A stretch of DNA of 61,362 bases, the filler included, from Malassezia furfur (lineage: Eukaryota): the NCBI GenBank assembly GCA_052055015.1. It is 9 parts of 9 records of this genome, joined end to end, with 100 filler letters (N's around TTAATTAATTAA, not from the genome) between each part and the next. Parts side by side here need not be neighbours in the genome. Positions count along the whole stretch, not along the records: positions 1 to 6,833 come from JBQJIT010000523.1; positions 6,934 to 13,741 come from JBQJIT010000524.1; positions 13,842 to 20,596 come from JBQJIT010000526.1; positions 20,697 to 27,448 come from JBQJIT010000527.1; positions 27,549 to 34,294 come from JBQJIT010000528.1; positions 34,395 to 41,115 come from JBQJIT010000529.1; positions 41,216 to 47,876 come from JBQJIT010000530.1; positions 47,977 to 54,619 come from JBQJIT010000531.1; 1 more part is not named here. One strand, written 5' to 3'. The position numbers and the translations under genes are program-made. Numbering within the stretch: the stretch's first letter is position 1; each line of letters begins with the position of its first letter. A model generated the notes under the pieces. The model did not search any database. It worked only from the letters and a program-made list of their open reading frames with translations, and was not told where the DNA came from. Below are positions 2 to 60,884 of this stretch, one piece after another.

Positions 2-697
2 GCCCCGTCCACACGCACCCCTTCCCTGCCCCGCAGCGTCCCCAACGCCGACCTTTTTCACACACTCAACTACCTCTACCAACGTGCCCACTACCTCGCG
101 ACATGTGCAGCACTCACCAACCGGCCACACCTCGCGCGCTGGAACGCCGTGGCGATGCGCCAGTTCTTTGCACTCGCACGCCGCGCCGTCATTCGCATGT
201 ACGTCTTCGTCGACCTCTCACACAGCGACCCCGAAATCAAGCGCAGCGTATGCAAGCGGTGCATGCACCTCCTCCTCGAGGGGCTCACGGCACATACGAC
301 CGTCCTTGGTACGCCGCACCCTCACCCAGAAACGCGCCGCACGCGCCTCGTCTCGACACTGTGCCTACACTGCCGCTACGTCCGCGCACGCAACGTGCCC
401 TATCCACCACCCGCACCGACGCGCCCACGCCACCTGTCGCAGCGCCAGCGCCGACGGCGGCACCTCTGGCGTATGCATCACCCTGAGCACGCGCCCAGCC
501 CACCCGACCTCGCCGTGACGCCGTTCGCCGAGCGCGCTCAAGGCACGCCGTGGCGCGCACCGATGCACGCGTACGTGCAGGCGCAGCATGGCGATGTGCG
601 CGCACTCGAAGACGCACTCACGACGCGCGGCGACCACATCACGACAGTAGGGCTCCTGCGCAACGGGCAAGTGGGGCCGCCGCAGGACGCCGCGTAG
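2..697 (+). CDS. RPR2: RNase P/MRP Zn-ribbon subunit (Rpr2/Rpp21/Snm1 family), 5'-partial
   Basis: Frame 2 from the window start reads ...DLFHTLNYLYQRAH...ARRAVIRI|DPEIKRSVCKRC...LCLHC (two CxxC, LNYLYQ and DPxIKRxxCKxC motifs). Probable in-frame 27-nt intron 199-225 (GTACGT...CTCACACAG). Confidence 0.75.
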   Translation, partial: APSTRTPSLPRSVPNADLFHTLNYLYQRAHYLATCAALTNRPHLARWNAVAMRQFFALARRAVIRMYVFVDLSHSDPEIKRSVCKRCMHLLLEGLTAHTTVLGTPHPHPETRRTRLVSTLCLHCRYVRARNVPYPPPAPTRPRHLSQRQRRRRHLWRMHHPEHAPSPPDLAVTPFAERAQGTPWRAPMHAYVQAQHGDVRALEDALTTRGDHITTVGLLRNGQVGPPQDAA

Positions 698-864
698 CGC
701 CGCGGACCTCTCCACGTGGTTTCGGCCTGGTGCCGACGCCGCGGGGGGTTCCAATGCGCACCTCCACAAAAGCAGTGGGGCCACACGCATGCGTTGCGTG
801 CGAAACGCACTGCCGGCGCAGCTCGGAACCACGACCCGAGCACCGCGGCGCCGTCCACCGCACC

Positions 865-2310
865 ATGCTCCGCCACGGTCTCGCCCACGTCCGTCTCACG
901 CTTGCGCGCGCACCTGTGCGCCCGGCCTGGCCCTCGGCGTGCCATGCCCCGGCGTTGGCCCGTGCTCACAGCACGCCTACCGGGCCCCCCACTCCGATCC
1001 CGCGGCATCGCGTCGTGATCGTCGGCGCAGGCTTCGGTGGAATGACGACGATCAACGCACTGCGTGGTGCGCCCGTCGATATCACGCTGATCGACCGCTC
1101 CAACTGCCACCTGTTCCAGCCGCTCCTGTACCAAGTAGGCACGTGCGATCTCGGCACAAGCGACATTGCGTGGCCCATCCGGCACCTGGTCGCGTCGCGC
1201 CCGGAAATCACCACGCTCCTCGGCGAGGTGGATAGCGTCGACAAACACGCACGCTTGGTGCACATCAAGGACGACGCCGATCCCATCCCGTACGATACAC
1301 TCGTCCTTGCGACCGGCGCACGCGACGCCTTCTTTGGGCACGACGAGTGGGAGCACATTGCCCCGGGGCTCAAGACGCTGCGCGACGCCACGACCGTGCG
1401 CCGACGCCTGCTCGTCGGGTTCGAGCTTGCAGAGCGAGTCGCCGATCCGGAGCTGCGCAAGTCGCTCATGACATTCACCATCATCGGCGGTGGGCCGACG
1501 GGCGTCGAGCTGGCGGGCGCCATTGCGCAGATGGCGCACCGCACACTTCCGCACGAGTTCCGGAAGATTGACACACGCGACGCACGCATCGTCCTCATCG
1601 AGGCCGGCACACGCGTCCTTAGCTCCTTCCCAGAAGATCTCTCGGCGTATGCCAAGCGCGCGCTCGAGGACCTCGGCGTCGAAGTCAAGCTGAACCAGCC
1701 GGTGTCGGACTTGCAGGTAGACCGCGTCGTCGCTGGCAACGAGACCATCCCGTGCTCGACCATCTTCTGGGCCGCCGGCGTCCAGGCGTCCGTCGCACAC
1801 CGCTGGATCTCCGCGCCGACCGACAAGGCGGGGCGCATCCAGGTCGAGCCGGACCTTTCGGTGCCGCACCACCCCGAGATCTTTGCGATCGGCGACACCG
1901 CCGCGGTGCACAACGCGGACGGCAGCCCGGTGCCGGGCATTGCCCCTGCCGCCAAGCAGATGGGCAAATATGTGGGGAAACTCGTGCGCAGCCGCATCCA
2001 TGGCGAGCCGGCGCCTGCACCGTTCCGCTACGTGGACATGGGCAGCCTCGCGACCATCGGCAAGAACAAGGCGGTAATTAGCTACAAGGGATTCAAGCTT
2101 CGGGGCTGGATCGCTTGGTGGATGTGGGGGCTCGCACACATTTACTTCCTCATCAGCGTCCGCAGCCGCCTGAGCGTCGCACTCAACTGGCTCTGGAACT
2201 TTACGCGCAACTTTCGCGCCTCTCGCGTAATTACGCAGGACCCGTTCCAGGACTTTCCCAAGGGCTTTCCGGAAAGCGTTTCGAAACGCCGCCAACGTGA
2301 GAATCCATAG
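865..2310 (+). CDS. ndh: Type II NADH:quinone oxidoreductase (NDH-2), bacterial-type, with a putative N-terminal mitochondrial presequence; intronless
   Basis: ATG at 865 (MLRHGLAHVRLTLARAPVRPAW..., Arg-rich, no acidic residues). Then VVIVGAGFGG, DRSNCHLFQPLLYQV, YDTLVLATGA, GGGPTGVELAG, FAIGD, PGIAPAAKQMG and a C-terminal WWMWGLAHIYFL membrane segment. Confidence 0.9.
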   Translation: MLRHGLAHVRLTLARAPVRPAWPSACHAPALARAHSTPTGPPTPIPRHRVVIVGAGFGGMTTINALRGAPVDITLIDRSNCHLFQPLLYQVGTCDLGTSDIAWPIRHLVASRPEITTLLGEVDSVDKHARLVHIKDDADPIPYDTLVLATGARDAFFGHDEWEHIAPGLKTLRDATTVRRRLLVGFELAERVADPELRKSLMTFTIIGGGPTGVELAGAIAQMAHRTLPHEFRKIDTRDARIVLIEAGTRVLSSFPEDLSAYAKRALEDLGVEVKLNQPVSDLQVDRVVAGNETIPCSTIFWAAGVQASVAHRWISAPTDKAGRIQVEPDLSVPHHPEIFAIGDTAAVHNADGSPVPGIAPAAKQMGKYVGKLVRSRIHGEPAPAPFRYVDMGSLATIGKNKAVISYKGFKLRGWIAWWMWGLAHIYFLISVRSRLSVALNWLWNFTRNFRASRVITQDPFQDFPKGFPESVSKRRQRENP

Positions 2311-2560
2311 CGGCGCAGCAAAGCTTGGCGAGGACCGCGCATAAACACGGCGAGACGTTTGCGCCAGCACGAAACACACGTTTATACGAGGAATGCCATC
2401 TATATCGTAGGATCCACGCTGCGCTCGAGCCTAGGGCACTCTGAACAGCCAGCGCCAGTGTCCTCCACCATGCCAAAATTCGATAAAAAGGCCCAATTTC
2501 CTCTGACTGTGGAGGCTCGCCCCGCATCCCTACCATGCCAAGCTCGACTTTCCTTCGCCC

Positions 2561-4095
2561 CTAGACACGCGCAAAACTACCTTGTTGCAGCGCTTCCACA
2601 ATCTCGGAGCGCCAACGAGCAATACGTTTCTGGTGTCCGGCCTCGAAAATTTGCATCCACGCTGGGTCAAAGGGAGGTAGTGGGCGTCCCGGTCCGTCAT
2701 TTCCTGCAAGGTTTCGAATCGTCTCGAAATACTCTTGAAACTCGGGGAAGAGGGCTGTGAATTTCGGACCATTGCCGCGCACCTTTATACGATCCATCTC
2801 CCACTGCTCTTGCTCAACTCGGGGAGGCAAGTGCGCTCGGCCGGCCAACACACGACTGGCAAGCACGGCCTGCCACTCGAACGCTTTAAAGGTCAATCCA
2901 GCGGCAATCTGCATGCGTTAGCAATAACGACACACGCATACGTACCGCTCCCACGAATGCCAAAGTAGAATCATTTATGTTGAATACGTGCAGATACAGT
3001 CCATTGACCCTGTTTCCATCCAGGCACAAGTCCGGCAAATAAGGATAGCTGTAGCGATAGCCTGTTGCAAAAATGATTTTGTCGACCCGGTTTGCCACAG
3101 AGCCATCGCGAAAATACACCGTGCGCTCTGCTGGCGCAATGTGGCTGATCTCGGAACGACGAACAATCCCGGGATGATTCAACGCTGCATCTCCAAAGAA
3201 CGGGTGAACGGTGCCTCGTGATGACGACACCACAGGCGACTTGGCCATGCCGATCAAGTCATGCGCGATGTCCATACCCGACACGGATGAACCGACTACG
3301 ACCACATTCTGGCATGAGCACGAGTGTGGTATACCTTACCATATTTCGATAATGCTCCCGATGCCGATAGTTTTTCGCATGTTCCACCGTAAAGGGATAC
3401 AATTGCTCGAACGCAGCCAGGCCTGGGATGTCGGGGAGGTTGGGCACATTGTAGTGTCCCGAGCACACGACAAGCGCATCAAAGCGCTCCTGCCACCAAT
3501 AATCAAGATCATCATCCGACCGCCGAAGGGTCAAGACCCATTCGGTACCCTGCTTCTCCGCTTTTTCAACCGTGGTGTTGTACTCAACCAGCTTCTCGTA
3601 GCCTTTTCGCTCACATAGGCTTTGGATGTATTGCTGAATCACGCTGTGGTGACGGAAGGGGGTCGTGGGACCATACGCGGCAATGGATGCCTCGGATCGA
3701 ATTTCTGGGATCGGCTCCTCGGTAAACTCCATGGCTCTGGCGTCCACATTCGACTCAAGGTAGGGATACGTTGGCGTATGTGCGTAACGTTCTTGCTGAC
3801 CTTTTTCCTTATAGCAGGGAAGTTTTTTCGGTAAATTAAGAGGCGGATCAAGTTGGGAGAGCTCAGCAATTCCTACAGGCAACCGACGCGACGAGGGGTT
3901 TTCGTCCAAAAGCCTAGAGTGTTAGCCTTTCCATGCACTAGGCCATACGTACCATACACCTCCAGCCTTTTCACGCCGCTCAAACACCTTCACAACGTCA
4001 AATGCCTTCTCGCGAACCAAGGAGTCAAGCGCAATGGCACCAGAGGGCCCAGCACCAATCACTGCTACACGCTGAACGTGATGCTCACGAGCCAT
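2561..4095 (-). CDS. Flavin-containing monooxygenase (FMO/thiol-specific monooxygenase-like), 4 exons
   Basis: MAREHHVQRVAVIGAGPSG...FERREKAGGVW, CSGHY, HAKNYR, VVVGSSVSGMDIA, IIFATGY, LAFVGA|IAAGLTFKAFEWQAV. Introns 3914-3952, 3309-3339 and 2909-2945 restore a continuous frame. Confidence 0.88.
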
Positions 4096-4522
4096 GTTTT
4101 GTAGCGTAGCAGAGGGGAACGCAGATACCTATCTGAAACACTATCCTTTAAACTTAGGAAGGGCATCCAGCCAATACAGAGGTCCACACTACAGGTGCGA
4201 CGGTCAAGAGCACGCACGTATCATGACGTGCTCTTGTGTGGAATTTTGCGACATCGTGGAGAAGCACGTGGCTGGAAGTAGGCACGGAGATCGAGTTCCT
4301 AGGTCGCCCCACAACCATTTTCTCCACACGCAATGCTCTCCTGCTTTATTTTGTCATTCATCAGCATCATGTGATTGACCTCACTCATTGTCCTTCTCAC
4401 GCAGCAACATAACATTTGCCCTATACCTACTCCATCTTGCGTGGTTTTGGCTAGATCCAGAAACACTTTATGTAATCTAGGAACACACTATCATCGGTAC
4501 GATGCACTCGTAATTGATCTAC

Positions 4523-6179
4523 TTAGACGTCACCAACCTTGTCTTTCACCGGCTCCATCCCTGCCATACGGGACTTTTGACGTAAACTTGCACCAAACTT
4601 GTAAAACATGGCAGTTATTGGCAGCAGCAAAAGTGCCAACCCGCCAAGAAGGCTGCATCCGCCCTGAATGATGAGCTTTTTAAACATTTGTGTGGAGAAA
4701 AGAGGAAATGCACCACCCGCTAATGCACGGAACAGTCCGTTGCTTGCATAGGCTGAAGCAGTATACACTGGGTACATTTCTCCCAAGTATCCAAGAAATC
4801 CCTGGAAAAGGAGAAATATGGCGCACTGGAACACTCCGTAGGCCGCGAGGGGTGCATAAACAGGTACACCAGAAAAGGATGTCCAGCCAAACTTTGTGAG
4901 TGCTTCACTATGCTAACGTACCCAAAAAAGCGAAATTGGAACTAAGACTCCACCGACAAAACACGCCTGCATTCTGTATTCCGGCTTCCACTTGCCTGAT
5001 TTGAACCACGGAAGGACAAGCCTTTGGTTGTAAATGCAATACAATATCAAAGCAACTGCGCACACGATCCAACCCGTCACGTAGGCACTGCTAGATTGAC
5101 CTAGTGAGAGTTGGTGGCGCCCCTGAAATGTCTGTTTGTAAGCAAAAATTCGAGGTTGTTTCGTACAAGGGGAAAGGCTTCAAAACTGTTGTTAGCAAGG
5201 GCTCAAACACATACAAGCAGTAGGTAATCCCATAAACATAGGTAATATAAAGGTTGCTAAAGAACAGAACGGGTTCCGTAAACGTCATGTGCAAGGGTCG
5301 AAACAGAGTACTGTAAGCAAGCTGGCTCAGTGTAAGCTGAGCGTCGCGGTCTTCCCCTCGCGAGTGAATGTTTGCGTTCCCGGTAATGCGGCGTAAGACG
5401 CGGGCCCGATGAGTGAGGATCGAATCCGCATTCGTCTCGGGCATGAAAAAGAAGGCAATGAGCCATGTGAGTCCTGTTCCACAGAGTAATGGCCAGATCA
5501 TCCAACGCCATCCTTTCTCCTGAACAGCAAATCCCGATAACAGTGGGCCCATTCCAGGACCACCGCATGCTGCATATGACCAGCATGCAATTCCATTCAT
5601 GAATCCTCCGTCAAGATTCCAAATGTCGCCCATTGTCGCACCCCCTGTAGCTAGAACAGGACTTTCAAGAAACCCAGCGATGAAACGCAAAATCATAAAG
5701 CCTGCGACGTTGTTGCATTGTGCCATGGGGATTTGCATAATGACAAATAGCCCAATACTCACAACGTATGGCCAATTGCGGCCAATGCGGGCAACCTCGG
5801 TAATAGGTGATAGGATCATCGGCCCGAGTCCATAGCCCCATACGAATAGAGAAATGCTCAAGGAGGAGGCGGTTTCCGATATGCCGAACACCTCGCTGAA
5901 TTCAGGAATGCCTGGTACAACGATACTGCTTCCAAGATACACAAACACCGTCATCAAGCAAACCAGAAATGTCACGAAACATTTGTAGAGAAAAGGCCAG
6001 TTTTTGGGATTTTCGGGATCATCGTCTCCGTTCCAATCCACTTAGAGACTCTCTTGTGTACCAAAATAACTTGGTGGTTTGCTCTTTCCCTGCACGATGC
6101 TCTTCTCAAAACGCGTCTTGAACAAATGCTGACCACTAACCAAATACACCACGTTACCGAAAGCAGTGGTAGCAAACAT
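4523..6179 (-). pseudogene. DHA1-family MFS drug:H+ antiporter, otherwise intact but with one in-frame TAA at codon 46
   Basis: ATG at 6179 (MFATTAFGNVVYLVSGQHLF...QESL), TAA at 6042-6044, then VDWNGDDDPENPKNW, GYGLGPMILSPITE..IGR, PEYRM, SLFW|FGWT, YTASAYASNGLFR. Introns 5186-5214, 5132-5166 and 4892-4921. The family call is firm; pseudogene status is less certain. Confidence 0.65.
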
Positions 6180-6760
6180 AGGAGTCGGTCAGTTTGCGTG
6201 AAACGCAAATATTGGCTAGTCTCGGACTAGTAGGAGCCACCACTTTTGAAGTAGAGCTGTCATTTATCGGACTCATTGGAGTAGCACGGCAGCGGGGTAG
6301 GATAGCCAATGTGATCATGAACTTCGGCGTTAACTAAGGTTTCCCTGTCTTTCTCAATGACGCAATTCTCTCAGATGTTACATAAACGCAATCTGCATTT
6401 AGTGAGTCTAAATTTAGCTCGTCCAATAAACATTTGCGCATCGACAGAAATTATTGCACATATCCATAACGAAAAGTAGTCTTTACTATACACGATGATT
6501 GATTGGAGGAAATGGAGGGAATTTTGCGTGAAACGTGCAACGTAGGTAGGCGTACCCTACACCATGTGGTTACGGAGTTAGACTATCGCCGGGACGAAAT
6601 GGGAGCGCGGCCTCGGATATTGGCTAACACCGCAAACGTTTCGGGAGATAGAACAATAATCAATGTTGGCGCGCAAATAGAGATTGTTTTGGGGTGGAAC
6701 GTCTGTGTTTGACAAGAGCATAGCGTAGCTTTCATTTTTGGCTGTTTAATTCTGACATGA

Positions 6761-6833
6761 ATGGGAATAGGAATAGGAATTAGGATTAGGATTAGGATTA
6801 GGATTAGGATTAGGATTAGGATTAGGATTAGGA
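6761..6833 (+). repeat. Telomeric repeat array (TTAGGA)9 preceded by degenerate ATGGGA/ATAGGA units
   Basis: Nine perfect TTAGGA copies at 6780-6833 run to the contig end with the G-rich strand pointing outward; variant units at 6761-6778. Confidence 0.88.
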
Positions 6834-6933
6834 NNNNNNNNNNNNNNNNNNNNNNNNNNNNNNNNNNNNNNNNNNNNTTAATTAATTAANNNNNNNNNNN
6901 NNNNNNNNNNNNNNNNNNNNNNNNNNNNNNNNN
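6834..6933. other. Artificial contig linker
   Basis: N44-TTAATTAATTAA-N44 (stops in all six frames). Confidence 0.98.
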
Positions 6934-7526
6934 ACGCCGCAGTGTGATCTTGTGCGGCTTGGGCGACTCGGCGCGCTCCTCTTTGGGCACGCTGCTCTTG
7001 GCGACCGACTCGGCGAGGCGCCGGCGCTTGGCGTCTGCCGCGTCATCCGGCGCACTGCGCTTCTCGGCCTTTGTTTCGCCCGCAAGCCATGCGTCGTACA
7101 CGTCGGCACTCGCCTCCTTGATCACCGCCTGGGTCAGTGCGCTCCACTTACATGCAAGTCGCGCGCCTGGAGCCAAATTTCGCTGTCGCGCATATTAAAC
7201 CGTTTCGCGTTGTTGCAGATCAGCTCAAAGTCGTGCTTGACGTCCGAAAACGTCGTGTACTCGTGCTGCTTGAGCCGCGTCTTGATATCCGTGAGCGTCA
7301 TGGGCTTCTTGATCACCACGTAGTATTCGGGGTACTGGCGCCGGCTGGGCAGGCGCATGAACGGCTCCGCCAGCGCAACCCCCTCGCGGTCCTTGGCGCG
7401 CAGCACACGCTCGAGCATCTGCTGCCCCATTTTCGTGACCTGCTCGACGGTGGGCACGGGCGCCTCCGACCCCGTGCTCCGCCGCGCGCTCTTGCGCACC
7501 TCGTCCGGCTTCGCGGCGATCGTCAT
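6934..7526 (-). CDS. Bromodomain protein (RSC/polybromo-like), 3'-truncated by gap
   Basis: LAEPFMRLPSRRQYPEYYVVIKKPM...DFELICNNAKRFNMRDSEIW. A 23-nt intron 7129-7151 (GTAAGT..CTGAC.CAG) joins it to the downstream frame. Confidence 0.8.
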
Positions 7527-7582: not shown

Positions 7583-8554
7583 ATGGCGAGTGGACGGGCC
7601 GCGCTGGACTCGAACCCGTTTGACGACCCGAGCGTGCAGAGCGCCATGCACGGCTCGCTCGATGACGACCTAGAGGCTGCTCCGTTTGACACGGACTCGC
7701 TGCACGGTAAGGGCGGCTTGGGCTACGCCGAAACGCTCGATGAGGACGAGGAGGAACTCTACCCCACGAGCACGCACGGCACGGCCCCGGCGCACGCCAT
7801 GCGCGAAGACGATATTGCACGCCGCGAGCGCGAGCTTGCCGAGCGCGAGCGCGAACTCGACGCGCGGACGGAGCACATGCGCAAGTTTGGGCGCAACAAT
7901 TGGCCGCCGTTCTACCCCCTCGTCTACCACGACATTGATGCCGAGATTCCGCCCGACGCGCAGGAGACAATGCGGCACATTTACTACCTGTGGCTGCTGC
8001 TTACTGCCACGTTAATATGGAACGTGCCGACGGTAATTGTGATGGCGATTTCGAGCGTGCCCAACGCCAACTTTATCGGCGCCATCATTTACCTCGTCTT
8101 CATCCCCCCGCTCAGTTTCATGCTGTGGTATCGCCCGGTGTACAACGGTTTGATGAAGGAGCACTCGCTGTTCTACTACGTGTATTTCCTGTTTAGCGGC
8201 TTCCACCTGCTCTTCTCTTTGTACGCCGTTATTGGGTATGCGTCTACAGGCTGTGCCGGCTTGCTGAGTGTGATTTCCGCGTTTTACAACGGCAAGTGGG
8301 TCGGCGGAGCGCTGGCCATCGTGTCGAGCCTTGGGTTTGTCGTGCAGGGCGCCGGCAACCTGTGGTACTACCGAATCGTACGTCGCTGCACCCACTCACC
8401 CAGATCTATCAGCACAACCAAGAGAGTAGGTCGCGACACTTACCCCAGAGGGCCACACGTTTGCGCAGGCCAAGGCCGAGCTTGCCTCGCACGGCGCGCG
8501 CGCCTACTTGTACGTGTCTTACTCACCGGTAGTTTGCGCGGCTCGCGGGTTTGA
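7583..8554 (+). CDS. Secretory carrier membrane protein (SCAMP)
   Basis: NPF motif, RERELAERERELD coil, NNWPPFYPLVYHDI, four TM segments, SFMLWYRPVY. Introns 8378-8403, 8426-8448 and 8510-8532 give the tail IYQHNQEKGHTFAQAKAELASHGARAYF. Confidence 0.9.
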   Translation: MASGRAALDSNPFDDPSVQSAMHGSLDDDLEAAPFDTDSLHGKGGLGYAETLDEDEEELYPTSTHGTAPAHAMREDDIARRERELAERERELDARTEHMRKFGRNNWPPFYPLVYHDIDAEIPPDAQETMRHIYYLWLLLTATLIWNVPTVIVMAISSVPNANFIGAIIYLVFIPPLSFMLWYRPVYNGLMKEHSLFYYVYFLFSGFHLLFSLYAVIGYASTGCAGLLSVISAFYNGKWVGGALAIVSSLGFVVQGAGNLWYYRIVRRCTHSPRSISTTKRVGRDTYPRGPHVCAGQGRACLARRARLLVRVLLTGSLRGSRV

Positions 8555-8636: not shown

Positions 8637-9667
8637 CTATGCGGCCTGCGCCGAGGGCGCCGCGGTGCTGGCGTACTGCGCCTGCTGCTGCTGCGCCTGA
8701 TGCTGCGCCTGCTGCTTCGCGCTGCTCTCCTTGAGCGCGAGGAGCTGCTTGGAGCGGAACGACTCGTAGAACGTACTGCTCGTCGTCTCGATCAGGTCGT
8801 GCAGATTAGTGCGCAGCATAAAGTCGCGCAGCTGCAAAAACTCGCAGTGCGACTTGTTTTCCACGTTGATCAGACCGCTGCCGACCTGGCGCACACGCAC
8901 CGGCCTGCCGTCCACCTCGACCGTCTTCTCTGCAGTGACCACCGCGAAGGGAAGGAGCGACTGCACCAGCGTGTTCAGCTCGCGGTCCTCGTCGTCGTGG
9001 TCCTCGTGGTCAAAGGGATAGACACGGATGCCGTTGGACTGCAGCGACGCACGAATCCGCTTTTTGAACAGCTCGCGCTCGCCGAGCGTCAGCGCGTCCG
9101 CCTTGGCAATGACTGGGATGACGTTGGCAATGTCGCCAAGCTTCTTGAGCACCTGAATGTCGATCGAGCGCAGCGAGTGACCGGACGGGTCGATGAAGAA
9201 GAGAACGGCGTGCACGCGCGTATCGGGGATATGGCGCTCACGCACCGCAGTCAGCTCCTTGCGCAGGTAGATGCTGTACTGGTCCTTGATGTATTTCACA
9301 ATGGGCTCCCAGCAGTGCTCGTTGTTAATCAGGTCGCCGTAGCCGGGGGTGTCAATGAGGTTCAGCTTGAGCTTGACGCCGTTCTCGACAATGGCTAGGT
9401 CAGTAAGGAGTACGTACTGTGCGACGTCGTCACAATACTCGTCGTCTGGCGCACCTCGTCCGACGGCTCCATACGGCCCTTGGACGAGAGCAGGTCCGAC
9501 GAAAAGAGCGTGTTGATGAGCGAGCTCTTGCCGAGACCCGACTGGCCCACGACCATCACATTGAACTGGAACCCGCGCCGGAGCAGCTTCGACTCGAGCT
9601 GCTTCGTCAGCGTGTCGAAGCCGACGTAGCCATGCAGGGGCGTAGGCACTGGCTCATTCACAGACAT
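8637..9667 (-). CDS. CDC10: Septin, Cdc10 group
   Basis: YVGFDTLTKQLESKLLRRGFQFNVMVVGQSGLGKS, DTPGYGD, DTRVHAVLFFI, VIAKAD; lacks a long C-terminal coil. 23-nt intron 9395-9417. Confidence 0.9.
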
Positions 9668-10877: not shown

Positions 10878-12538
<1,661 letters not shown>

Positions 12539-47556: not shown

Positions 47557-47588
47557 GCGAGGGAAGCGGTGCGCCTCCACATTACAGG

Positions 47589-50900: not shown

Positions 50901-53900
50901 CCGCGCAGCCTTTGGTCGGTGGTGCGGCGGGGTCGCCCTCGGAAAAGACCGGCGACGCCTCTCGCCCTTCTCAGGAGTCAGTGATGGAGGCCACGCAGGA
51001 CGAACTTCCCCCCTTGCCATCAAAGGACGCTTTGTCGCCTACCGTAAAGAGCACGACCACCATGCCGTCTCAAGATGAGAGCTGGTCAGAGGACAAGGCA
51101 GGGCTGAATGTGACTCCCTCCGAATTGGCTCGCCAGAGCGCCGACGTTGCAATGCCATCCGTGCCAAAAGTGGAGGCGGAAACGGTAGGGGCCATCGAAA
51201 CGAGCGACTCAGCGGGGGTGCCCGAGAAAACCGATACTCTTCAGTCGACCGAGACAGAGTCTGTTCCCCGGTCGGCCCTGGTCGAGCCCGCAGATTCTCG
51301 GGACGAGAAACGGCAGACACCGGAGCCAGCACAAGACCCATCCATCGACGCGACCACTGGCCTAGCGGCTACGCCGAGCCTGCCAGCTGCGGAAGCCAAT
51401 GCCAACTTGCCGCAGACCGAGCCTGCTCACTTGGCACTGGCAGATTCGTCTGCTCAAGATGAGGCTGAGGTGCCAGTACTCCAACAAGCAACCGCACCTG
51501 CTGCCTCGCGCGCCGTGGAGACAGATACGCGGGCTTCTTCGGATGAGCCGTCTACGTCGTCCAGACCAACGACAGACAGTCTTGGGCTCTCCAAGGCGGA
51601 CCCAGCGCCCTCTACGCATCCATCGACCGCATCTACCCATCACACCTCGCACACGCATTTCCACCAGGGCCACACGCATTGGAACAACGAGCAGGACTTG
51701 GATGAAGCTGTGCTCGCTGCGCCGCCTGGGCCACAAGCCACTCATGTGGACGACAGTGCGACCTTGGATCACTTTGCCGGATCCGATGGCCATGTACGCG
51801 ACCGTTTGCGCAGCATTCAGCGCTCTGACAGTTTCCAACACGGGATGCGGCACATCGGCCATGGCGCAACAAAGGAACAAGAACGTGTTGCGCTGCATCA
51901 GACGCTGGACCGCTTTAGCTCGCTAGAGCCGCCGCTGCAGGCAGACCCAGCGATACCACAGCCGACGCCAATGGCGGCCTCCACGGACGTAAGCCGCCAT
52001 GTGCTGGAGCCGACCCTTGATGCGGACAGCTCGGCCCGTGATGCCAGCGCCAGCGCCAGTGCCTTACCGGAGGAGACACGCCACGCGGCCGAGCAGCTGC
52101 CGCACCATGCCTTGCCGCCGTCCGACCGACGACGCGTGTCGGCGGATGCGTCGCCCGAAGAAGAGCGCGTGGCAGTACACCAAGTCGTGGACCGCTTCAG
52201 TGCGCTCGAGCCGCCGCTTCATGTCACAGCCAGCCCACGCTCGCCACAGCCTCGCGCGCCAGATGCGCGGCATGTGTCGGCGGATGCCTCGGCAGAAGAG
52301 GAACGCATCGCTGTGCACCAGGTGGTGGACCGTTTCAGTGGGCTGGAGCCGCCGCTCCACGCGACCTCTTCTCCGCGCTCACCGCGGCCTGATGTGCCAG
52401 ACGCTCGCCACGTGTCGGCAGATGCCTCGACGGAGGAAGAGCGCATCGCCGTGCATCAAGTGGTGGACCGATTCAGCGCACTGGAGCCGCCCCTGCATGC
52501 CGATTTGGGAGCGGAGGAGTCGGACGCCACGAGCCGTGCGCCGTTGGCGCGCGACCCGCTGGAATCGGCACGCATTGCGCAACACCAGGTGATCGACCGC
52601 TTCAGTGCACTCGAACCGCCGCTGCCTGATTCATCCGCTGATAAGCCGAGCGACGTTCCGCCGTCTGCGGCGCACCCAACATCATACGCGTCCGGGAACG
52701 AGCCCGATTCGAGCGAAGGCGAGGACGACGACGACGTGCCCGATCTCTGGGTATCGAACCCCTCCCGTGCGTCACAGGCGCTACACCGACACTCGGGCGT
52801 CGATTCGGACTGGGACGCCCAGGCCAGCGACATGTCGGGCTCTGTGGACGAGGCAGTGCGTGTGCCGGTAGACCTTGGCAAGCTCAGCGCGGCGCAGCGG
52901 TCCGACGAACCGGGCAATATGCAAGCGCCCGGGTCGCCGCCGGTGCTCCACTCGGCGTCTTCGCGTGCGCTGGACGAGTCCGAGTCGGACTACTCGCAGG
53001 ACGAAGAGTCGGCCGACAACACCCCCGAGCACATTGTCCTGTCTGGCGCGCCGGCACCGCTCACAGCACCGCCGCGGCCACAGGACGCCGTGGGGGTGAC
53101 ATCGCCTGACAACACGGTGCCGGATCGCGACACTGACACGCCGAAACTCGAGCGCGAAGTACCAGCCTCGGTCGCAGCCGCGCGCGATTTGTCTGGAGTG
53201 AGTCCATCGACGCCCACGAAGTCGGCGTTGGTCGCAAAGCAGTCGTTGCCGTCGACGCCGCAGCATGCGGGCGACGTACTCCCTATGGGATCGGGCACCG
53301 ACACGCCTATGGCAGGCTCGGCGCACGAAGCGGATACAAGCAAGGCGCCAGCCGAGGCTTCGAGCGCTGCGACGCAGCAAGAGTCAACGGCGACCCAGCC
53401 CGACGACAACGTGGGTGCGCCGCTTACGCAGCACACGCCCTCGTCGGAGTCACGCGATGTGCCGAGCGGCGAGACCGACGTGCTTGGCACGATGCCTCAG
53501 CGTCTCCCGACGTCGCCACAGGCCTCCTTGTCGACTCGCAGCCCACGCTCCAGCGCAAGTCCTAGCCTGCGCTCGTTGCGCACCCCGACGCGGCGCGCTC
53601 CCGAGGCCCGCAGTACGGTGCCCAAGTTTTTACTGGACACGTCGCCGCCGTCGACCGCGGTGGCCCTGCCACGCTCGCCACCCAACCCGCCACAGAATGC
53701 GCCATCGATGCAAGACGATTGGCTGATGCAGGACTCGTCCGTCCCGGCGAACGACGCCGGTCGTGCTGATTCGTCAGGCGCAAGCAACATGCCACAGGAT
53801 CCGCCGATGGCCCCGTCGCTGGAGTCGCAGGGCTCGTCACAGGACCCGGCGGACGTTGTTGCCCCGGCCCTGCCCCCCCGTACAAGCACAGCCGAGCGTG

Positions 53901-54439
53901 CGTTGTCGAACGCGACGACACCGGCGCCCTCATCCTCCCAGCGCACCGAGGCCAGCTCGCCAACGCCCGCCAAGCGCCCAGTGCCCCCAGTGCCGACGAC
54001 GCAGGCACCACCAAGCTCGGCTGCAGATCCATCGGTGGACTCAGCGCAGACCAACTCGCCCCGTCCGTCCACGGAAGTGGCGACGAACAGGGATGTTCCC
54101 GCATCGGCGACCCAGCCGGCGTCGCGTCCAGTGCCAGAGACAACGGCGGCCTCCGCCGCACCGACCCCTACCGGTGCGGCAGAGTCTCCGTCGCACACGG
54201 TGTCCGCGGCGTCCTACGAAGCGTCTACGGCGTCGTCCGCGACCGAGGATGACGAGCGACATGTCCCCAATGACCCCCCTGCCGACAAGCGGCGGTCTGC
54301 GTCCGGTACGCACACCAAGCGGGCGCCGATCCCGAGTGTGCGCAGCGTCTCGGGCACTCAGCGCCCGGGTGGTCACCGCAAGACGCTCAGTGCAATCATG
54401 CAAGAAGCCGATGCATTCCTGCAAGAATGGAAGGAGTAG
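47985..54439 (+). CDS. ~2,143-aa protein: N-terminal SH3BGR/glutaredoxin-like domain plus huge acidic Ser/Pro/Ala-rich region with internal repeats
   Basis: MSAEVELFTTSI...VLTAHKIPFVFYDLASDDEAKRRWRRK|ARDPRIPGLLV...GSYEEFEEAVEYGELRQFL; 23-nt intron 48147-48169, then one open frame to 54439. Confidence 0.8.
51875..52624 (+). repeat. Five copies of ExxRxAxHQxxDRFSxLEPPL; three form 138-bp (46-aa) tandem units
   Basis: gtgtcggc anchors at 52136, 52274 and 52412 (period 138); diverged copies near 51875 and 52560. Confidence 0.9.
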
Positions 54440-54440
54440 A

Positions 54441-55177: not shown

Positions 55178-57391
55178 CTAGTCGCCAAACCGGATCGCCC
55201 CACCCGGGAATGCGCCGCCGGAAGGCACGGCGCGCGCGCGCCACGCTGCGACATCCGCACGCAGCGTGTCAAGCAGCGTCGCAAGCCGCGTGTAAAACGT
55301 GTGGCCCTCGTGCACGTGCTGCGTGAGCGTGGTGTAGGTGGTGTAGGCGTCGCGCACACGGGCGTATGCCGCGTCCTGGGCGCGCAGCGCGGCGCCGAGC
55401 GCGGCGTCGTCGTGCACGGCCGTGACGTGCGCGCGGATCTGGCGGAGCAGTGCGGCCTGGGCGTCGTGCAGCGCATCGCACTGCGCTTCATAAGGGGTAT
55501 ACTTGCGCATGCCTGCGTCGAGCACGTCGTCCAGCGCACCGGGGTCAATCGCCTCGGCCTCCGCGCCGGCGTGCAGCTCGCCAAGGTGCCGCTCGCGCGC
55601 GGCCTTTTCGAGGCGCGGGCGCAGCACGTCCGTGTCGCACGCCGAGCGCACGCGCTGCAGCAGCGCTCGGCGCTGGGCCGCACCGTCCTCAAGGCGCTCG
55701 ACGTCTGCCCGCAGCGCGCGCAGGCGCGGCGCAGCCGCACGGCGCACGCGCTCCACTTCGTAGCTGGGTGGGAGCACATGACGCGCGAGCTCGGCGCCGC
55801 CGCGCTCCATCACCGCGAGGTCGGCGCGCACGGCCTCCCACTGCGCACGCACCGTTGCGTCGCTCGCGCCCGCCTCGGCAAGCGTGTGCTCGTATTCGCG
55901 CCAGAGCGTCTGCTGCGCGTGCTGCTGCGTGACGAGGTCGTCGGCCACGCCGGGCACCGCGCGGAACACGATCGCCTCGAGCTCGCCAAGGACGTCGGCA
56001 CAGTGCGCCGCGACGTGCGTGTTCTCATCAATCTCACGGGGTAGCGCCGCAAGCGGCGCGCGCTGCAGCGCCGCCGTGTACGTCGCCCACTCACGCGGGA
56101 TGCGCTGCGGCGACTCGATCCGATCGAGCATGCCAGGCAGGTGCAGCTCAGCGAGCGCCGCGGCGGCCTCAGCGTCCAGCGCACGCAGCCGCACCTCGAT
56201 GACCGTCTCGCAAAAGTGCCGCTTGCGGTCGCTGTAATGCCGCTCGGCCACGTCAATGCCGTACGTCATCAGCCCACGGAACCACAACGTGTGTTCGTCG
56301 ATGAGCCCGCGCGGCGACGCGAGGCCCTCGGGCACCGCGGCCTTGGCCATCTCGGCCGTGCCGAGGTCGGGCAGCGCCGCCTCGCTGGTGGCCGACTCGA
56401 GGTAGATGAGCTGGTTGTCGCGCTCGGCACGCGCCAAGTTGGTCTCCACGATGGACTGCAGGCCACGCAAATCATCCACAAGGGCATGTGACGGCAGCAC
56501 ACGCAATGGCAAAGCGAGCGCTGCACGCACCTGCGCGGCGGCAAGCGTCAGGCGGCCCAGCTCGTCGCCATACCGCTTGTGCACGAGATCGTCGCAGCTC
56601 TTGCGATACTGCGCCGCGGCCGAAAAGTGCAGCTGCTTGCACCGTGCGTGCACTTTGTATGCCTGCGGCAGCGGTGACGCAGCCGCTGCATTCGCGCTCT
56701 TCTCGTACAGGTCGGCTGCGCTGCGCGCAAGTTTCGCAATGGTGGTGTCTTTGTACGCGTCCTGTGTCGCTTTTTGCCAGAAGCATTCCTGTGCCTGCGC
56801 AAGCATCAGCGCATGCAGCGCCGTGAGCGAGGTGGGCGCTAGCTCCACCGGCGCGTTGGCGCCCTGCTCCGCGGGGGTCAGAAGTGTTTGCAGCGTCTGT
56901 AATGTGCCAGCGGCATACTGCGTCAGCGCGGCACGTACCTGAAAGTGCATCGTTGCACGACGTATGCTCTCCTTGTCGCTACGCGACTCGGCCTGACCTA
57001 GCTGTGCGTACTGTGCCGCGATGCTCTGCACGATGCACGCACGCTCCATCGCAAGCGAGGAGTAGGCGACGAGGCGGCCGCTCGTGAGACCCGAGCCCCA
57101 CGGAAATCCAAATCCCAACGGCGTGTGGGCGGCGTCCTTAGCACCGGCGTTGCGGTCGAGCACACGTAGCAGGAACGCGAGCTGCACTGCGTACGCTAGC
57201 AGTTTCGGCACGCTCGACGCGGCGATGGGTAGATGGATGCACGCATCGCGCGCCGTACTCCATGCCTCTATATCGGACTCATACAGCACGCTGTGAACAT
57301 CGGGATACGCGGCGTCGAGATATGCGATCACCGGGTCGCGGAGCGCGACGTGCTCGGAGCGCGGCACGCCCAGGCCCAGCACGTTGGACAT
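55178..57391 (-). CDS. RIM20: Bro1-domain pH-response protein PalA/Rim20
   Basis: GFPW, SLAMERAC, HFQ|YAAG, MLAQAQECFWQKA, AAAQYRKS, YGDELGRL, AERDNQLIY, V-domain coil, GHTFY; probable in-frame 21-nt intron 56918-56938. Confidence 0.85.
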   Translation of the reverse strand: MSNVLGLGVPRSEHVALRDPVIAYLDAAYPDVHSVLYESDIEAWSTARDACIHLPIAASSVPKLLAYAVQLAFLLRVLDRNAGAKDAAHTPLGFGFPWGSGLTSGRLVAYSSLAMERACIVQSIAAQYAQLGQAESRSDKESIRRATMHFQVRAALTQYAAGTLQTLQTLLTPAEQGANAPVELAPTSLTALHALMLAQAQECFWQKATQDAYKDTTIAKLARSAADLYEKSANAAAASPLPQAYKVHARCKQLHFSAAAQYRKSCDDLVHKRYGDELGRLTLAAAQVRAALALPLRVLPSHALVDDLRGLQSIVETNLARAERDNQLIYLESATSEAALPDLGTAEMAKAAVPEGLASPRGLIDEHTLWFRGLMTYGIDVAERHYSDRKRHFCETVIEVRLRALDAEAAAALAELHLPGMLDRIESPQRIPREWATYTAALQRAPLAALPREIDENTHVAAHCADVLGELEAIVFRAVPGVADDLVTQQHAQQTLWREYEHTLAEAGASDATVRAQWEAVRADLAVMERGGAELARHVLPPSYEVERVRRAAAPRLRALRADVERLEDGAAQRRALLQRVRSACDTDVLRPRLEKAARERHLGELHAGAEAEAIDPGALDDVLDAGMRKYTPYEAQCDALHDAQAALLRQIRAHVTAVHDDAALGAALRAQDAAYARVRDAYTTYTTLTQHVHEGHTFYTRLATLLDTLRADVAAWRARAVPSGGAFPGGAIRFGD

Positions 57392-58073: not shown

Positions 58074-58115
58074 TTTCGTAGCTCCTCCACTTGCCCCCAC
58101 GCGCCGCTGCGCGCG

Positions 58116-60884
58116 ATGGACGACGAGGCGGACGCGTCCTCGCTGTTCTTCCACGCGAGCCAGTCATCCAATGCGTCAGGTGAGCACCCTAGGCGCCTGG
58201 CACACCTTGCGGCGTCGTTCAGACTCACCGACGCCGAGATCGCCTTCTTCGATGCGGTCGTTGCGTCGCTGCCCGACGCTTCCGACGGCTTTGGGCATCT
58301 GAAGCGCGCGTACGATGCGCAGATGCGCGTGCCAACACTGGTGCACTCCGTCGCACGCGCACTGGATGTTGGACCAGACGACACAACGGCGGTCGATGCG
58401 CGGCTATGGAATACGCTCCTTGCGCTTGTCCAGGTGCGAGGCCATACATGGGCGGAGCGTTGGGATGCCGTGCGCGTTTCGCTGGGACTTGACCCTTGGG
58501 TGTCGGATGAAGACGACTCTTACTCGATGCATGAGCTTACGCGTGCGCTGCAGACACCGGCCCCGCCGGCGCACACCCCGGGGCCGTCGGCATGGGCACA
58601 GTACGATGCACCCTCTGCAACATACTCCCCTTGGTCGTCGCCGCGCAGCGTGTCGAGCGGCGATACTCACGACATTCCAAGTTCTCAGTGGATGCAACGC
58701 AGTGCTTCGCCGATGCGTGTTGGCGAGCTACAGCGTGCGCCGCTACCGACCGCGGCGTCGCTCGCATGGACCCCACACACGGCCCGCAGCAGGACGAGTC
58801 GCTCGCTGTATAGCAACGTGTCTGATGACGAGGTCGATGCGCCCTATGACTGGCGCGCTGCGCGCCGTTTAGGTACTGCCGAGGCTTGGAGTGCTACCCG
58901 TCTTCTCGGCCGCATGCTCCATCATTGGCGCACGGCGCTCCAAGCACGTCACGAGGCGATTGCTGGTGCAGCTCGAGCACACGACCGGTGTGTGGTGTCG
59001 CAGTGCCTGACCACCTGGCGCACGGCAACAAAGCAGGCAAAAAAGCGGCGCATGCTCGCTGCGGCGTATGCGGACCGTGCGCTGCTGCACCGCGCATGGA
59101 CTCACTGGGCGCGCCGCTGGACGGCGCTTCTCGATTCGCGGCGCGCCGAGCATCGCGCTATGCTGCGTGCGGCGTTTTACGAGGTGGAAACCCGGCGCAG
59201 CCGAGCGATCATCGCCGTTGCATGGACGGTATGTTGCTGACTTACCTAGCTCTGGCGCCAAGCGAGCGATCGGCACCTTGCCACGGCTGTTTGTGCCGCA
59301 CGGAGGAAGCAGGCGGCATTTGCAACCTGGCGTGCGCGGTCTGAAGATGCACGGGTACTGTCGGAGCGTGGTGCGGCTTTCCGTCGCCGTCGTGCACAGC
59401 GTACGCTACGCGATAGGTGGATGCGGTGGGCACGGCGCACCGAGGATCGCCGTGCACTCGCTGTGGCTACCGAACAGCGCCACATGCGGCAACAGTACAC
59501 AGCGTGGTCGACATGGCGCACGCGCCTTGCCCATGTCCGAGCGCTGGACGTGCGGGCCGAGGCGTGGGCCGACGCTGCTGCGCATCTGCATCTGCGTGAC
59601 ACGCTGCGCCGCTGGCAACTGCGTACGCGTGCGGCGGACGCTCTGCGTGCAGCAGATACACAGATTGTGCAGGCAGCATGGCGGACGTGGTGGGTCCGCT
59701 TCACCGAGCGCACCGTCGCCTGGCAGGGTACGTCGCTTCCTCACACAGACTATCAGGCGAACGCCGAGGCACAATGGGCGCGGCGGCGCACCGAACGTGC
59801 CTGGACGCACTGGGCGCAGCGCACCGCACACTGGGAGCGACAGGCGCAGTACGCGGTACGCACGCATGCGAAGCGGATGCTCTGGGCCGCGTACGTTCAG
59901 TGGGCTGCGCGCGCGCAGGCTCATAGAGAAGCGGCGCTGCGTGCGGACGCAGCTGCGCGGCTGCGTACGCTGCGTGGCGCATGGCGGCAGTGGCGCTCGG
60001 CGCAGCAGGCGGCGCACGCACGCCGCTTACGCGCTGCGCATGCAGCGCGGCTGCGGGGCGACGTGTTCCAAGCGTGGCGCTTGCGTGCCGCCCAGGCACA
60101 GCACTGGCGCACTGGCACCGCGCTACTCGAGGCGCAGACCGCCGCGCGCGTCCAGCGGACGTTCCTGGCACAGTGGCTCCGCCGTGCGCGTGCGCGTCGC
60201 ACTGCGTACCTGGAGGCGGCGCAGCATGCCGACACGCAATGTGCTGCGCGCGCCCTGGCGCACTGGCGCGCTCGGTGCCGCACCGTGCGTGCGCACACGG
60301 GCATGGCGGATGCCTTGCGTGCCGCTTATGACCAAGGTACGTGGCCGACTCACCAGACCGTGCACGGCATGCGTTGCATACTTGGGTACGTGCGCACCGG
60401 CTTGGTACGCTCGAAACCGCATGGAAAGCGGCGCGCGACGGCCACAGGCGCGCCGCGGCCTGGGAGCAGTGGCGCGACGCGTTGGCGCATGCGGCGCTCT
60501 CGTACGAGGTACGTGCGACGCTCACGCCAGGAATATGCGACGCTTGCAGCGCGGCGGCGGTGGATGCTGCGCCGCTGCTTTGCGCATTGGCTCGGCCGCA
60601 CGAGTGTGTTGCCTGCCGTGGAGCACCGGCGGAGCGCATTGCAGGCCCACGCGCTGCGCCGGTGGGTGGACAGGCTGCGTGCGCGGCAGCGCGAGGCGAC
60701 CGCGCGTGCGTTTGTCCAGGCGACCGTGCTGCGCGATGCACTCGCGACGTGGCGCGCCAAGCGCGCGTACCTCGCCGAGTTGCGTGCCGTCCAAGGCCTA
60801 CACACACGCGCGCGGCGCACCTCGTCGGACACGCACTTTCGGCGGCGGCTTGCGTTTGTGGCGCCCACGGCGCGTTTCTCGTAG
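58116..60884 (+). CDS. SFI1: Spindle pole body half-bridge protein Sfi1 (Trp-periodic centrin-binding repeats)
   Basis: Many A-x7-L-x3-[FW]-x2-W[RK]-type repeats. Introns 59229-59249, 59728-59748, 60337-60356 and 60509-60530 give a continuous repeat protein. Confidence 0.82.

Follow-up and report, generated by a model that had tools for sequence, protein, structure and literature searches.

The stretch of DNA analysed here, called the window throughout, comprises 61,362 bases of the Malassezia furfur genome and consists of nine pieces of about 6.7 kilobases (kb) apiece, which are concatenated rather than representing one locus and are separated by artificial spacers (N44, TTAATTAATTAA, N44; positions 6834-6933 and seven more junctions). 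Its protein-coding genes are interrupted by very short GT-AG introns which form the subject of this report. In total, 46 such introns were curated in roughly 35 genes, 43 of them within GC-rich sequence and three within a low-GC stretch. The guanine-plus-cytosine (G+C) content of the window amounts to 60-72% nearly throughout, the exception being a region at about 2,000-6,800, where it drops to 48-54%. Three protein searches, which cover three of the nine pieces, returned matches bearing species names, and in all three Malassezia provides the best named match. An exon of an acyl-CoA synthetase gene most closely matches a protein of M. psittaci (78% identity) and an exon of a SCAMP gene a protein of M. 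yamatoensis (85% identity), while a membrane-protein gene has an exon sharing 99% identity with an M. furfur CBS 14141 protein and 85% identity with one of M. brasiliensis. In addition, a tblastn search of the window with this M. furfur protein aligns 124 residues at 100% identity. These matches bear out the lineage (Malassezia, Ustilaginomycotina) guessed in an earlier note on this DNA and, as far as can be judged from them, the window is nuclear genome sequence of a Malassezia that is M. furfur itself or stands very near to it. Scanning the window against Rfam at gathering thresholds yielded no match and thus no small nuclear RNA (snRNA) within it.

The short introns occur in genes throughout the window. 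The earlier note had assigned them to every GC-rich contig and had given their length as 20-27 nucleotides (nt), both of which has to be qualified. The GC-rich part of the first piece holds only a single motif match (199-225), the three accepted introns of this piece (29-39 nt) all being located in its low-GC part; and while 37 of the 43 GC-rich introns do not exceed 27 nt, six are longer, so that the true range is 20-38 nt. The median length of the GC-rich introns is 23 nt and the mean 24.4 nt, with one intron of 20 nt, six of 21, eight of 22, eight of 23, two of 24, six of 25, six of 26, one of 28, two of 29 and one each of 33, 34 and 38 nt. Accordingly, 40 of the 43 measure at most 29 nt and 23 fall between 20 and 23 nt, figures which describe a 61-kb sample of nine pieces and not the genome.

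All 43 GC-rich introns and all three low-GC introns start with GT and end with AG, a count that is partly circular since the scans required GT and AG. Among 42 donor hexamers, GTACGT is found 30 times, GTATGT five times and GTGCGT three times, with GTAAGT, GTAGGT, GTACGG and GTACGC occurring once each. Across the whole GC-rich set G1, T2 and G5 never vary; position 3 is occupied by A in 40 donors and by G in three, position 4 by C in 36 and position 6 by T in 41. Both donors lacking T at position 6 (GTACGG and GTACGC) were found by homology with no donor filter applied. The exon bases preceding the donor exhibit no consensus. A branch-like motif CTNA[CT] is present in 41 of 42 introns (CTCAC in 18, CTGAC in 14, CTTAC in four, CTAAC in two, CTCAT in two and CTGAT in one), the remaining one having CTGAG. 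The putative branch A is placed at +16 in nine of these introns, at +17 in ten, at +18 in seven, at +19 to +25 in 15 and at +32 in one. It never lies closer to the donor than +16, and the spacer that separates the donor hexamer from the branch pentamer, G+C-rich and typically 6-11 bases long, never falls below 6 nt. Downstream of the branch A, five nt remain in 29 of the 42 introns, four in one and six to eight in 12, the usual layout of the 3' end being branch A, C, one base and YAG. CAG serves as acceptor in 36 of 42 introns, TAG in five and AAG in one. The T content amounts to 20% in the introns and 16% in the spacers; there is no space for a pyrimidine tract and none is present, the latter as the earlier note had stated along with a distance of 16-19 nt between donor and branch A, which most of the introns indeed display. 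No accepted intron carries the U12-type donor ATATCC or GTATCC, and the U12 class (branch TCCTTAAC) was not encountered.

Introns whose length is a multiple of three are reported to be depleted in Paramecium, in line with selection against stop-free introns in frame. Compared with this, the window shows a weak trend, nine of 42 introns being multiples of three where 14 are expected (one-sided binomial p = 0.067). Five of the nine are free of stop codons in frame (31660, 43335, 47233, 56918 and 59728). Several internal exons between neighbouring introns are hardly longer than the introns themselves (8404-8425, 22 nt; 31766-31791, 26 nt) and two others measure 61 nt (8449-8509 and 31681-31741); exons this short point to recognition across introns rather than across exons.

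In keeping with the earlier claim that removal of the segments restores reading frames and family motifs, 26 of the 43 GC-rich introns were verified by homology or by a restored motif. Orthologue alignments account for 12 of them (three in the acyl-CoA synthetase, three in SCAMP, four in an Sfi1-like protein and two in a membrane protein), continuity of Pfam profile coordinates over a change of frame for those in septin, CAP59, BRO1, FHA, Ras, Gar1 and proteasome genes, residue numbering of a PDB chain for two in calcineurin B, and restored motifs for those in the RING-CH, zf-PARP (two), S13 and SH3BGR genes. Fifteen further introns are supported by coding statistics, by continuity of open reading frames (ORFs) or by a paralogue, and two by their motifs only. 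Codon support in this class means positive codon-usage log-odds on both flanks in splice-compatible frames combined with a broken or negatively scoring read-through of the segment; its other members qualify by ORF continuity or by a position shared with a paralogue. For the 14 segments listed individually in the earlier note, coordinates and lengths all turned out to be right, and each starts with GT and ends with AG on the strand of its host gene. A branch-like motif CTNA[CT] 1-5 nt ahead of YAG is present in 13, the exception being 48147-48169 with CTGAG. Ten of the 14 are among the verified introns (22986, 23720, 31792, 41931, 45475, 60509, 8426, 8510, 9395 and 48147), and the other four (32315, 45804, 7129 and 30764) are supported by codon scores on both flanks and a broken read-through frame.

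A strict scan of both strands for GT[AGT]NGT, followed by CTNA[CT], 0-4 nt and YAG at a total length of 18-34 nt, gave 45 matches, compared with a mean of 2.99 (standard deviation 1.72, maximum 9) in 200 dinucleotide-preserving shuffles of the pieces, which corresponds to a fifteen-fold excess. These 45 matches consist of 39 accepted introns on the sense strand, two nested alternatives, one antisense match and three which were neither accepted nor rejected. The strand bias of the accepted matches provides an internal control since chance matches would hit either strand. Not included in the accepted set is the match 199-225 (27 nt), which shows perfect signals, is in frame and free of stops, and lies inside the RNase P Rpr2 domain; comparison with two solved Rpr2/Rpp21 PDB chains reveals a variable loop at this site and an alignment compatible with either reading. 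Likewise not included are the match 53411-53431 and the match 14311-14339 (29 nt), which is situated in the first exons of a Rho-family GTPase gene (14294-14404). If the latter is removed, the GTPase P-loop falls short of the family pattern by two residues; in the unspliced sequence the missing P-loop residues are present, but the surrounding context does not continue. Rejected as introns were 56015-56044 and 28029/28033-28058, both antisense to Pfam-supported genes, 46153-46183, which is coding in an M. furfur record, and the nested alternatives 22005-22024, 32315-32340 and 2909-2935. A scan of every GT..AG pair of 14-150 nt with coding flanks was discarded as too noisy, as it was swamped by in-frame pairs within exons, and was replaced by a scan combining the relaxed motif with flank scores, in which true introns are set apart by their broken read-through.

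Among the introns verified by orthologue alignment are those of the SCAMP gene. Intron 1 (8378-8403 (+), 26 nt) and intron 2 (8426-8448 (+), 23 nt), which follows a 22-nt exon, are both defined by the alignment, and removal of intron 3 (8510-8532 (+), 23 nt), which follows a 61-nt exon, leads to the conserved last residues and the stop codon. With all three introns taken out, the C-terminus aligns to its last residue and the tail is free of gaps in 14 of 17 aligned rows, while the unspliced and the one-intron models lose the conserved C-terminus. On codon statistics alone 8426 and 8510 score poorly, and they were rescued by the orthologue alignment. In the acyl-CoA synthetase gene the junction formed on removal of intron 1 (23720-23741 (-), 22 nt) is gapless in 10 of 12 orthologues, the other two having a 13-residue gap and a later start, respectively; that of intron 2 (22986-23007 (-), 22 nt) is gapless in all 12, and removal of intron 3 (22314-22339 (-), 26 nt) yields the conserved C-terminal tail and the stop found in 10 of 12 orthologues. 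A metagenome scan with an exon of this synthetase gave 80 loci with identities not exceeding 45%, all of them uninterrupted and devoid of intron traces; they were regarded as bacterial and left out of the comparison. Directly downstream of the synthetase on the same strand, and very tightly packed, follows the first exon of a RING-CH gene (22029-22402 / 22251-22340), which is positioned within or beside the last exon and 3' end of the synthetase. The intron of this RING-CH (RINGv) gene (22005-22028 (-), 24 nt) is preceded by RINGv positions 1-30, which extend to the exon end; its removal completes the C4HC3 pattern, and the unspliced frame contains a stop.

The Sfi1-like gene contains four introns. 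Intron 1 (59229-59249 (+), 21 nt) contains in-frame stops; of six homologues covering the site, five lack residues at this point and one has seven extra ones. Intron 2 (59728-59748 (+), 21 nt) is a stop-free multiple of three whose seven residues are absent in six of seven homologues including the closest one, which exhibits about 80% identity over the aligned part. At intron 3 (60337-60356 (+)), which with 20 nt is the shortest of all, the closest homologue follows the spliced frame, and at intron 4 (60509-60530 (+), 22 nt) the junction is gapless in all five covering homologues. Removing introns 3 and 4 raises the blastp score against the closest homologue from 489 to 580 bits.

Two paralogous membrane-protein genes (42942-43901 and 45190-46290) share two intron positions. 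In the gene at 45190-46290, removal of 45475-45496 (-) (22 nt) gives a model that is gapless against M. brasiliensis P0225 and against P0223. Splicing of 45804-45825 (-) (22 nt) is supported by codon scores of 29 and 23 bits on its flanks and a read-through score of -20 bits, and the paralogue retains the residues preceding it; 45941-45965 (-) (25 nt) is flanked by 32 bits on either side, and the M. furfur record P0222 implies a gap of exactly 25 nt. In the gene at 42942-43901, the stop-free 21-nt intron 43335-43355 (-), a multiple of three, has its position and start in common with the paralogue intron 45475-45496. The second intron of this gene, 43664-43686 (-) (23 nt), corresponds in position to 45804-45825; the frame needs its removal, and it receives weak codon support (-2 and 16 bits). 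At 43480-43510 (-) the same gene changes frame with no recognisable intron, which could reflect a frameshift, an assembly error, a pseudogene or an atypical intron.

Further introns are located precisely where a Pfam profile passes from one frame to another. In the septin gene (9395-9417 (-), 23 nt) the Septin profile covers positions 1-51 up to the end of the upstream exon and resumes with 56-277 from the second downstream residue in the other frame. In a Rho/Ras-family GTPase gene (14405-14437 (+), 33 nt) Ras positions 8-25 extend to the last upstream residue and 27-160 start from downstream residue 2, the upstream frame meeting a stop two codons beyond the donor, within the intron. The Gar1 intron (40817-40841 (+), 25 nt, donor GTACGC) separates profile positions 1-35, which reach the donor, from 36-92 just past the acceptor in another frame. 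One of two introns in a CAP59-type mannosyltransferase gene (41931-41952 (-), 22 nt) lies between profile positions 2-159, ending with the last upstream residue, and 161-242, beginning with the first downstream residue; the other (41502-41526 (-), 25 nt) shows flank scores of 27 and 34 bits and a read-through score of -28 bits. In the BRO1/ALIX gene BRO1 positions 8-143 run to the last residue upstream of a stop-free 21-nt intron (56918-56938 (-)), a multiple of three, and positions 145-383 continue from downstream residue 2. An intron inside the FHA domain (32129-32151 (-), 23 nt) parts, less tightly than in the other genes, FHA positions 1-28 and 34-67, which are found in different frames on either side, the choice of the 23-nt segment over a 50-nt alternative with a weak donor being based on the donor consensus. 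A second intron of this gene (32315-32336 (-), 22 nt) has flank scores of 11 and 10 bits, its read-through meets a stop after two codons, and the FHA domain begins 10 residues downstream. Three introns of 25 nt each interrupt the proteasome beta-subunit gene. At 34883-34907 (-), which has the only non-YAG acceptor (AAG), profile positions 5-34 and 33-167 meet in two frames. The intron at 34986-35010 (-), just before the mature N-terminus, has flank scores of 17 and 10 bits with a read-through stop after 16 codons, and that near the 3' end (34461-34485 (-)) is flanked by 34 bits over 153 codons and 9 bits over 21 codons ending in a stop, with a read-through score of -10 bits.

In the calcineurin B gene the exons flanking intron 2 (35373-35400 (+), 28 nt) correspond to residues 19-66 and 69-95 of the PDB chain 6tz8_B and those flanking intron 3 (35487-35515 (+), 29 nt) to residues 69-95 and 99-175; the numbering is continuous at both if split codons are counted, together with an unaligned end residue at intron 2. 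Upstream of intron 1 (35193-35221 (+), 29 nt) lies an exon with the start codon, and the downstream exon begins at 6tz8_B residue 19 with a codon score of 21 bits. In the zf-PARP gene the profile covers positions 1-33 up to the exon end at intron 1 (31792-31813 (-), 22 nt), beyond which the finger resumes in another frame. Removing intron 2 (31742-31765 (-), 24 nt, donor GTACGG) together with intron 1 completes the H-x2-C half of the PARP-type finger. A candidate third intron in this gene (31660-31680 (-), 21 nt) is proposed by motif only, having perfect signals, a length divisible by three and no stop. In the gene for a mitochondrial-type ribosomal protein S13, excision of 36338-36363 (-) (26 nt) joins an exon with the start codon in frame to the S13 body; reading through leads to a stop after five codons, and the S13 Pfam match lies downstream. 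The SH3BGR profile extends from position 3 to 50 at the exon end ahead of 48147-48169 (+) (23 nt, branch CTGAG), where read-through also meets a stop after five codons; the frame following this intron we take, by eye rather than by a score, to be the second half of the SH3BGR domain. Behind the SH3BGR N-terminus an open frame of 2,106 codons (48119-54436) extends which has no Pfam match, a mostly low coding score and a strand rich in A (AT skew 0.16-0.18); it may encode a single giant disordered protein or conceal additional introns or genes.

Several of the remaining GC-rich introns are characterised by coding statistics. A 23-nt intron in a bromodomain gene (7129-7151 (-)), just upstream of which the bromodomain match ends, has codon scores of 28 bits upstream and 23 bits downstream, and read-through meets a stop after five codons. 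The 38-nt intron of the ATP synthase beta gene (11047-11084 (+)), the longest of the GC-rich set, has flank scores of 11 and 39 bits with a read-through stop after three codons. The intron at 30764-30786 (-) (23 nt) joins ORFs of 262 and 745 codons in an XPG-like gene, the flanks scoring 21 and 30 bits and the read-through -28 bits. Close to the 3' end of a large AMP-binding (acetoacetyl-CoA synthetase-like) gene, 40411-40436 (+) (26 nt) is flanked by 14 and 31 bits with a read-through stop after 15 codons. The gene at 46574-47874, to which no family could be assigned, contains 46868-46893 (-) (26 nt; 13 and 17 bits; read-through stop after 15 codons) and a 21-nt candidate proposed by motif only, 47233-47253 (-), which has perfect signals, is a stop-free multiple of three and reads through with a score equal to that of splicing. 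In a coiled-coil protein gene 15932-15957 (-) (26 nt) joins ORFs of 752 and 272 codons with scores of 10 and 1 bits and a read-through score of -30 bits; it is the weakest accepted case. Finally, a 34-nt intron (25749-25782 (-)) follows the fifth codon of a gene for a pyridoxal phosphate (PLP)-dependent decarboxylase and joins ATG plus four codons, in phase 2, to an ORF of 493 codons; with the intron removed, the N-terminus presumably resembles that of the family. According to their domain lists, the records P0002 and P0005 from two other Malassezia species feature the acyl-CoA synthetase fused with the adjacent PLP-dependent decarboxylase.

The low-G+C island at 2000-6800 shares a piece with GC-rich sequence, the G+C content of the genome otherwise being 65-70%. 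It contains genes for an FMO-like monooxygenase and an MFS transporter, and its introns are longer (29, 37 and 39 nt), with CTAAC in all three and 6-9 nt following the branch A. In the FMO-like gene 2909-2945 (-) (37 nt) joins ORFs of 130 and 115 codons, with a read-through stop after 19 codons and an FMO-like Pfam match upstream, and 3914-3952 (-) (39 nt) joins ORFs of 58 and 217 codons, with a read-through stop after 10 codons, an NAD-binding match upstream and an FMO-like match downstream. In the MFS transporter gene 5186-5214 (-) (29 nt) connects a 275-codon MFS_1 ORF to 27 further codons, ORF structure being the only basis in this case.

The earlier note had predicted that gene finders would err at such introns, and public records of relatives indeed provide examples. 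Nine named Malassezia protein records were aligned to the spliced models of three genes, and five of them deviate at intron positions of the window. These differences look like misplaced or unspliced short introns; they serve as an illustration and not as a rate, and some could be real. At 45804-45825 the donor chosen in the M. furfur record P0222 lies 12 nt further upstream, which results in a 34-nt intron and the loss of four residues conserved in the paralogue; in the M. brasiliensis record ten residues are missing at this site. The alternatives in public records measure 34 and 52 nt. P0222 moreover reads through 45475-45496 and regains the frame by a 37-nt gap further on, and this misplacement creates a wrong stretch of 21 residues which is contradicted by the M. 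brasiliensis record and by another record. The synthetase record of M. psittaci shows a gap of 13 residues at 23720 and that of M. pachydermatis reads through the last synthetase intron. The SCAMP record of M. yamatoensis has additional residues where intron 1 lies and leaves intron 3 unspliced, while four other Malassezia SCAMP records are right at these introns. Proteome-based work on M. furfur, a skin commensal and opportunist, inherits such gene-model errors.

Taken together, we are highly confident that the segments are ordinary U2-type GT-AG introns of the Malassezia nuclear genome and represent a feature already known from the genus rather than a new system. The introns of the window are at the short end of what the spliceosome accepts, each of them being little more than its signals. 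The earlier note had considered such introns a candidate novelty unless published annotations already described them, which is largely the case, as short Malassezia introns are in print (PMC5389616, PMC9241646, PMC6473144, PMC7426719). The curated annotation of M. sympodialis contains 5350 introns in 4493 genes with a mean length of 30 bp and 99% support from RNA sequencing (PMC5389616, Table 2), the aligners having been set to allow introns of 10-2000 bp (PMC5389616). For M. restricta an average of 37.2 bp and a median of 30 are given (PMC9241646, Table 1), its re-annotation having used a minimum intron length of 20 and then 15 (PMC6473144), and a review refers to "very short introns" in Malassezia genes (PMC7426719). 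The window resembles these two species in belonging to the same genus with a compact genome, in intron sizes in the 20s to 30s and in an intron density close to one per gene (some 46 introns in roughly 35 genes, compared with 5350 in 4493 genes in M. sympodialis). It differs in that its median of 23 and mean of 24.4 nt lie below the published means, as far as the tables of these papers tell; the available portions of these papers present neither a mode nor splice-signal anatomy or branch distances, the length distribution being given in a figure outside these portions. A full-text literature search revealed no analysis of Malassezia splice signals or branch distances and no stated 20-23-nt mode, though the supplements of PMC13644364 and PMC8476143 may hold length tables.

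Outside the genus, comparable lengths are known from ciliates such as Paramecium, with ultra-short introns of about 25 nt according to the available part of PMC5014332, and from myxozoans and dicyemids, with introns of 22-27 bp and reduced splice-site motifs (PMC13644364, available part). The window shares with them a modal length below 30 nt, GT-AG ends and, presumably, introns that are defined as units, whereas its donor and branch signals (GTACGT, CTNAC) are long and nearly invariant compared with the reduced motifs which that text describes for the animal cases (PMC13644364). In its available portion this 2026 paper on the shortest animal introns names ciliates, microsporidia and dicyemids as exceptions below 30 bp, with no mention of Malassezia (PMC13644364), and in the corresponding portion of a fungal survey from 2021 M. 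sympodialis figures only as intron-poor, with nothing said on its intron length (PMC8476143). Lineages whose introns fall below 30 nt are thus named without Malassezia in the intron-evolution literature searched, to the extent of these text portions (PMC13644364, PMC8476143), and the case therefore appears under-used. Cryptococcus neoformans, a member of the same phylum with an intron-definition architecture, has introns with a mean of 63 bp (quoted in the available part of PMC8476143), two to three times longer than those of the window. In contrast to ciliates and animals, M. furfur is a culturable and transformable basidiomycete yeast. Introns of 23-52 nt occur in the microsporidian Encephalitozoon, and Trichomonas and Giardia feature a fused motif of branch point and 3' splice site; in all three organisms the introns number from a handful to a few dozen and the spliceosome is strongly reduced. 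The window introns resemble theirs in that the branch abuts the 3' splice site, a pyrimidine tract is absent and nearly all bases are signal. Malassezia, by contrast, has thousands of introns, going by the table of the M. sympodialis annotation (PMC5389616).

In mechanistic terms, each intron would be recognised as a unit, i.e. by intron definition. The donor would be read by U1 and later by U6 and the branch site CTNAC by SF1/BBP and then by U2, while the first AG a few bases past the branch A would serve as 3' site, a pyrimidine tract being absent with no sign that one is needed. The floor at +16 would most likely correspond to the shortest loop that allows the donor and branch helices to meet in the catalytic core.

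Some considerations weigh against assigning all segments to ordinary introns. Excision was deduced solely from protein homology and coding statistics and the branch points from their motif, and it was Pfam-supported exons of this very window that served to train the codon model. Two of the accepted introns (31660-31680 and 47233-47253) were admitted by motif only, 15932-15957 has weak codon support, and at 32129-32151 the 50-nt alternative suits the frame equally well. The stop-free in-frame introns of 21 nt (56918, 59728, 31660 and 47233) could stay in some of the transcripts and leave the frame intact. Furthermore, the parts assigned to U1, U2 and SF1, like the explanation of the 16-nt floor by geometry, derive from general knowledge of splicing.

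An unlikely, though not negligible, alternative, which goes back to the earlier note and is reasonable in itself, holds that the splicing machinery of this lineage is miniaturised or sterically adapted, with altered or lost parts of U1, U2AF, SF3b or RES or a changed 5' end of U1 enabling introns of 20-23 nt. It could draw on the cramped geometry, as a gap of 16-18 nt between donor and branch A (26 of 42 introns) would bring the U1 and U2 duplexes to within about 4-6 nt of each other and, with five nt following the branch A in 29 of 42, leave nothing for a pyrimidine-tract binder. The dominant donor moreover has C at +4 (36 of 43), which mismatches the canonical 5' end of U1, and our full-text literature search found no study of the Malassezia spliceosome. 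Yet the signals are strong and canonical, with GT-AG ends and a yeast-like branch site. How far the spliceosome is reduced varies greatly among lineages whose introns are as short as these or shorter (ciliates, the Bigelowiella nucleomorph, microsporidia), and short introns alone therefore do not indicate an adapted machinery.

It is rather improbable that some of the stop-free 21-nt segments in frame are optional, that is, short coding insertions which are alternatively retained. Nine of the 43 introns are multiples of three, and in the five lacking a stop (31660, 43335, 47233, 56918 and 59728) retention keeps the frame; at 47233-47253 and 31660-31680 read-through scores match those of splicing, and one homologue record has seven extra residues at both 21-nt sites of the Sfi1-like gene. 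These residues begin like a translated donor, which suggests an unspliced gene call. Moreover, the Pfam profile at 56918 continues without the seven residues, six of seven homologues lack them at 59728, and in signal strength these segments equal the frame-breaking introns. A reading of the segments as motif matches due to chance, as sequencing frameshifts or as non-spliceosomal processing sites has virtually no prospect of being right. In its favour, about three matches are expected by chance, at least one (56015-56044) is antisense to a gene and a frame change near 43480-43510 has no recognisable intron; the fifteen-fold excess over shuffles, the strand agreement with the genes, the homology restored exactly at 26 sites, the invariant GT-AG ends and the branch motif at a fixed distance all oppose it.

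Returning to ordinary U2-type introns, a more far-reaching combination of claims can be put forward only tentatively, and as a whole it is more doubtful than not: that the geometry sets a hard floor, with the branch A never below +16 and five nt from the end; that the mode of 21-23 nt is below any printed for the genus; that the class of up to 23 nt is systematically misplaced in public sets; and that C at +4 and the missing tract reflect real changes in the usage of U1 and U2AF. If this held true, M. furfur, being culturable and transformable, would be the most tractable model for a full-size spliceosome handling a 20-nt intron. Although the phenomenon itself has already been published, its interest remains in that the case is tractable and under-recognised: the floor of 16 nt, the fused branch and 3' site and exons down to 22 nt offer a clear and testable picture of a minimal intron in a transformable yeast.

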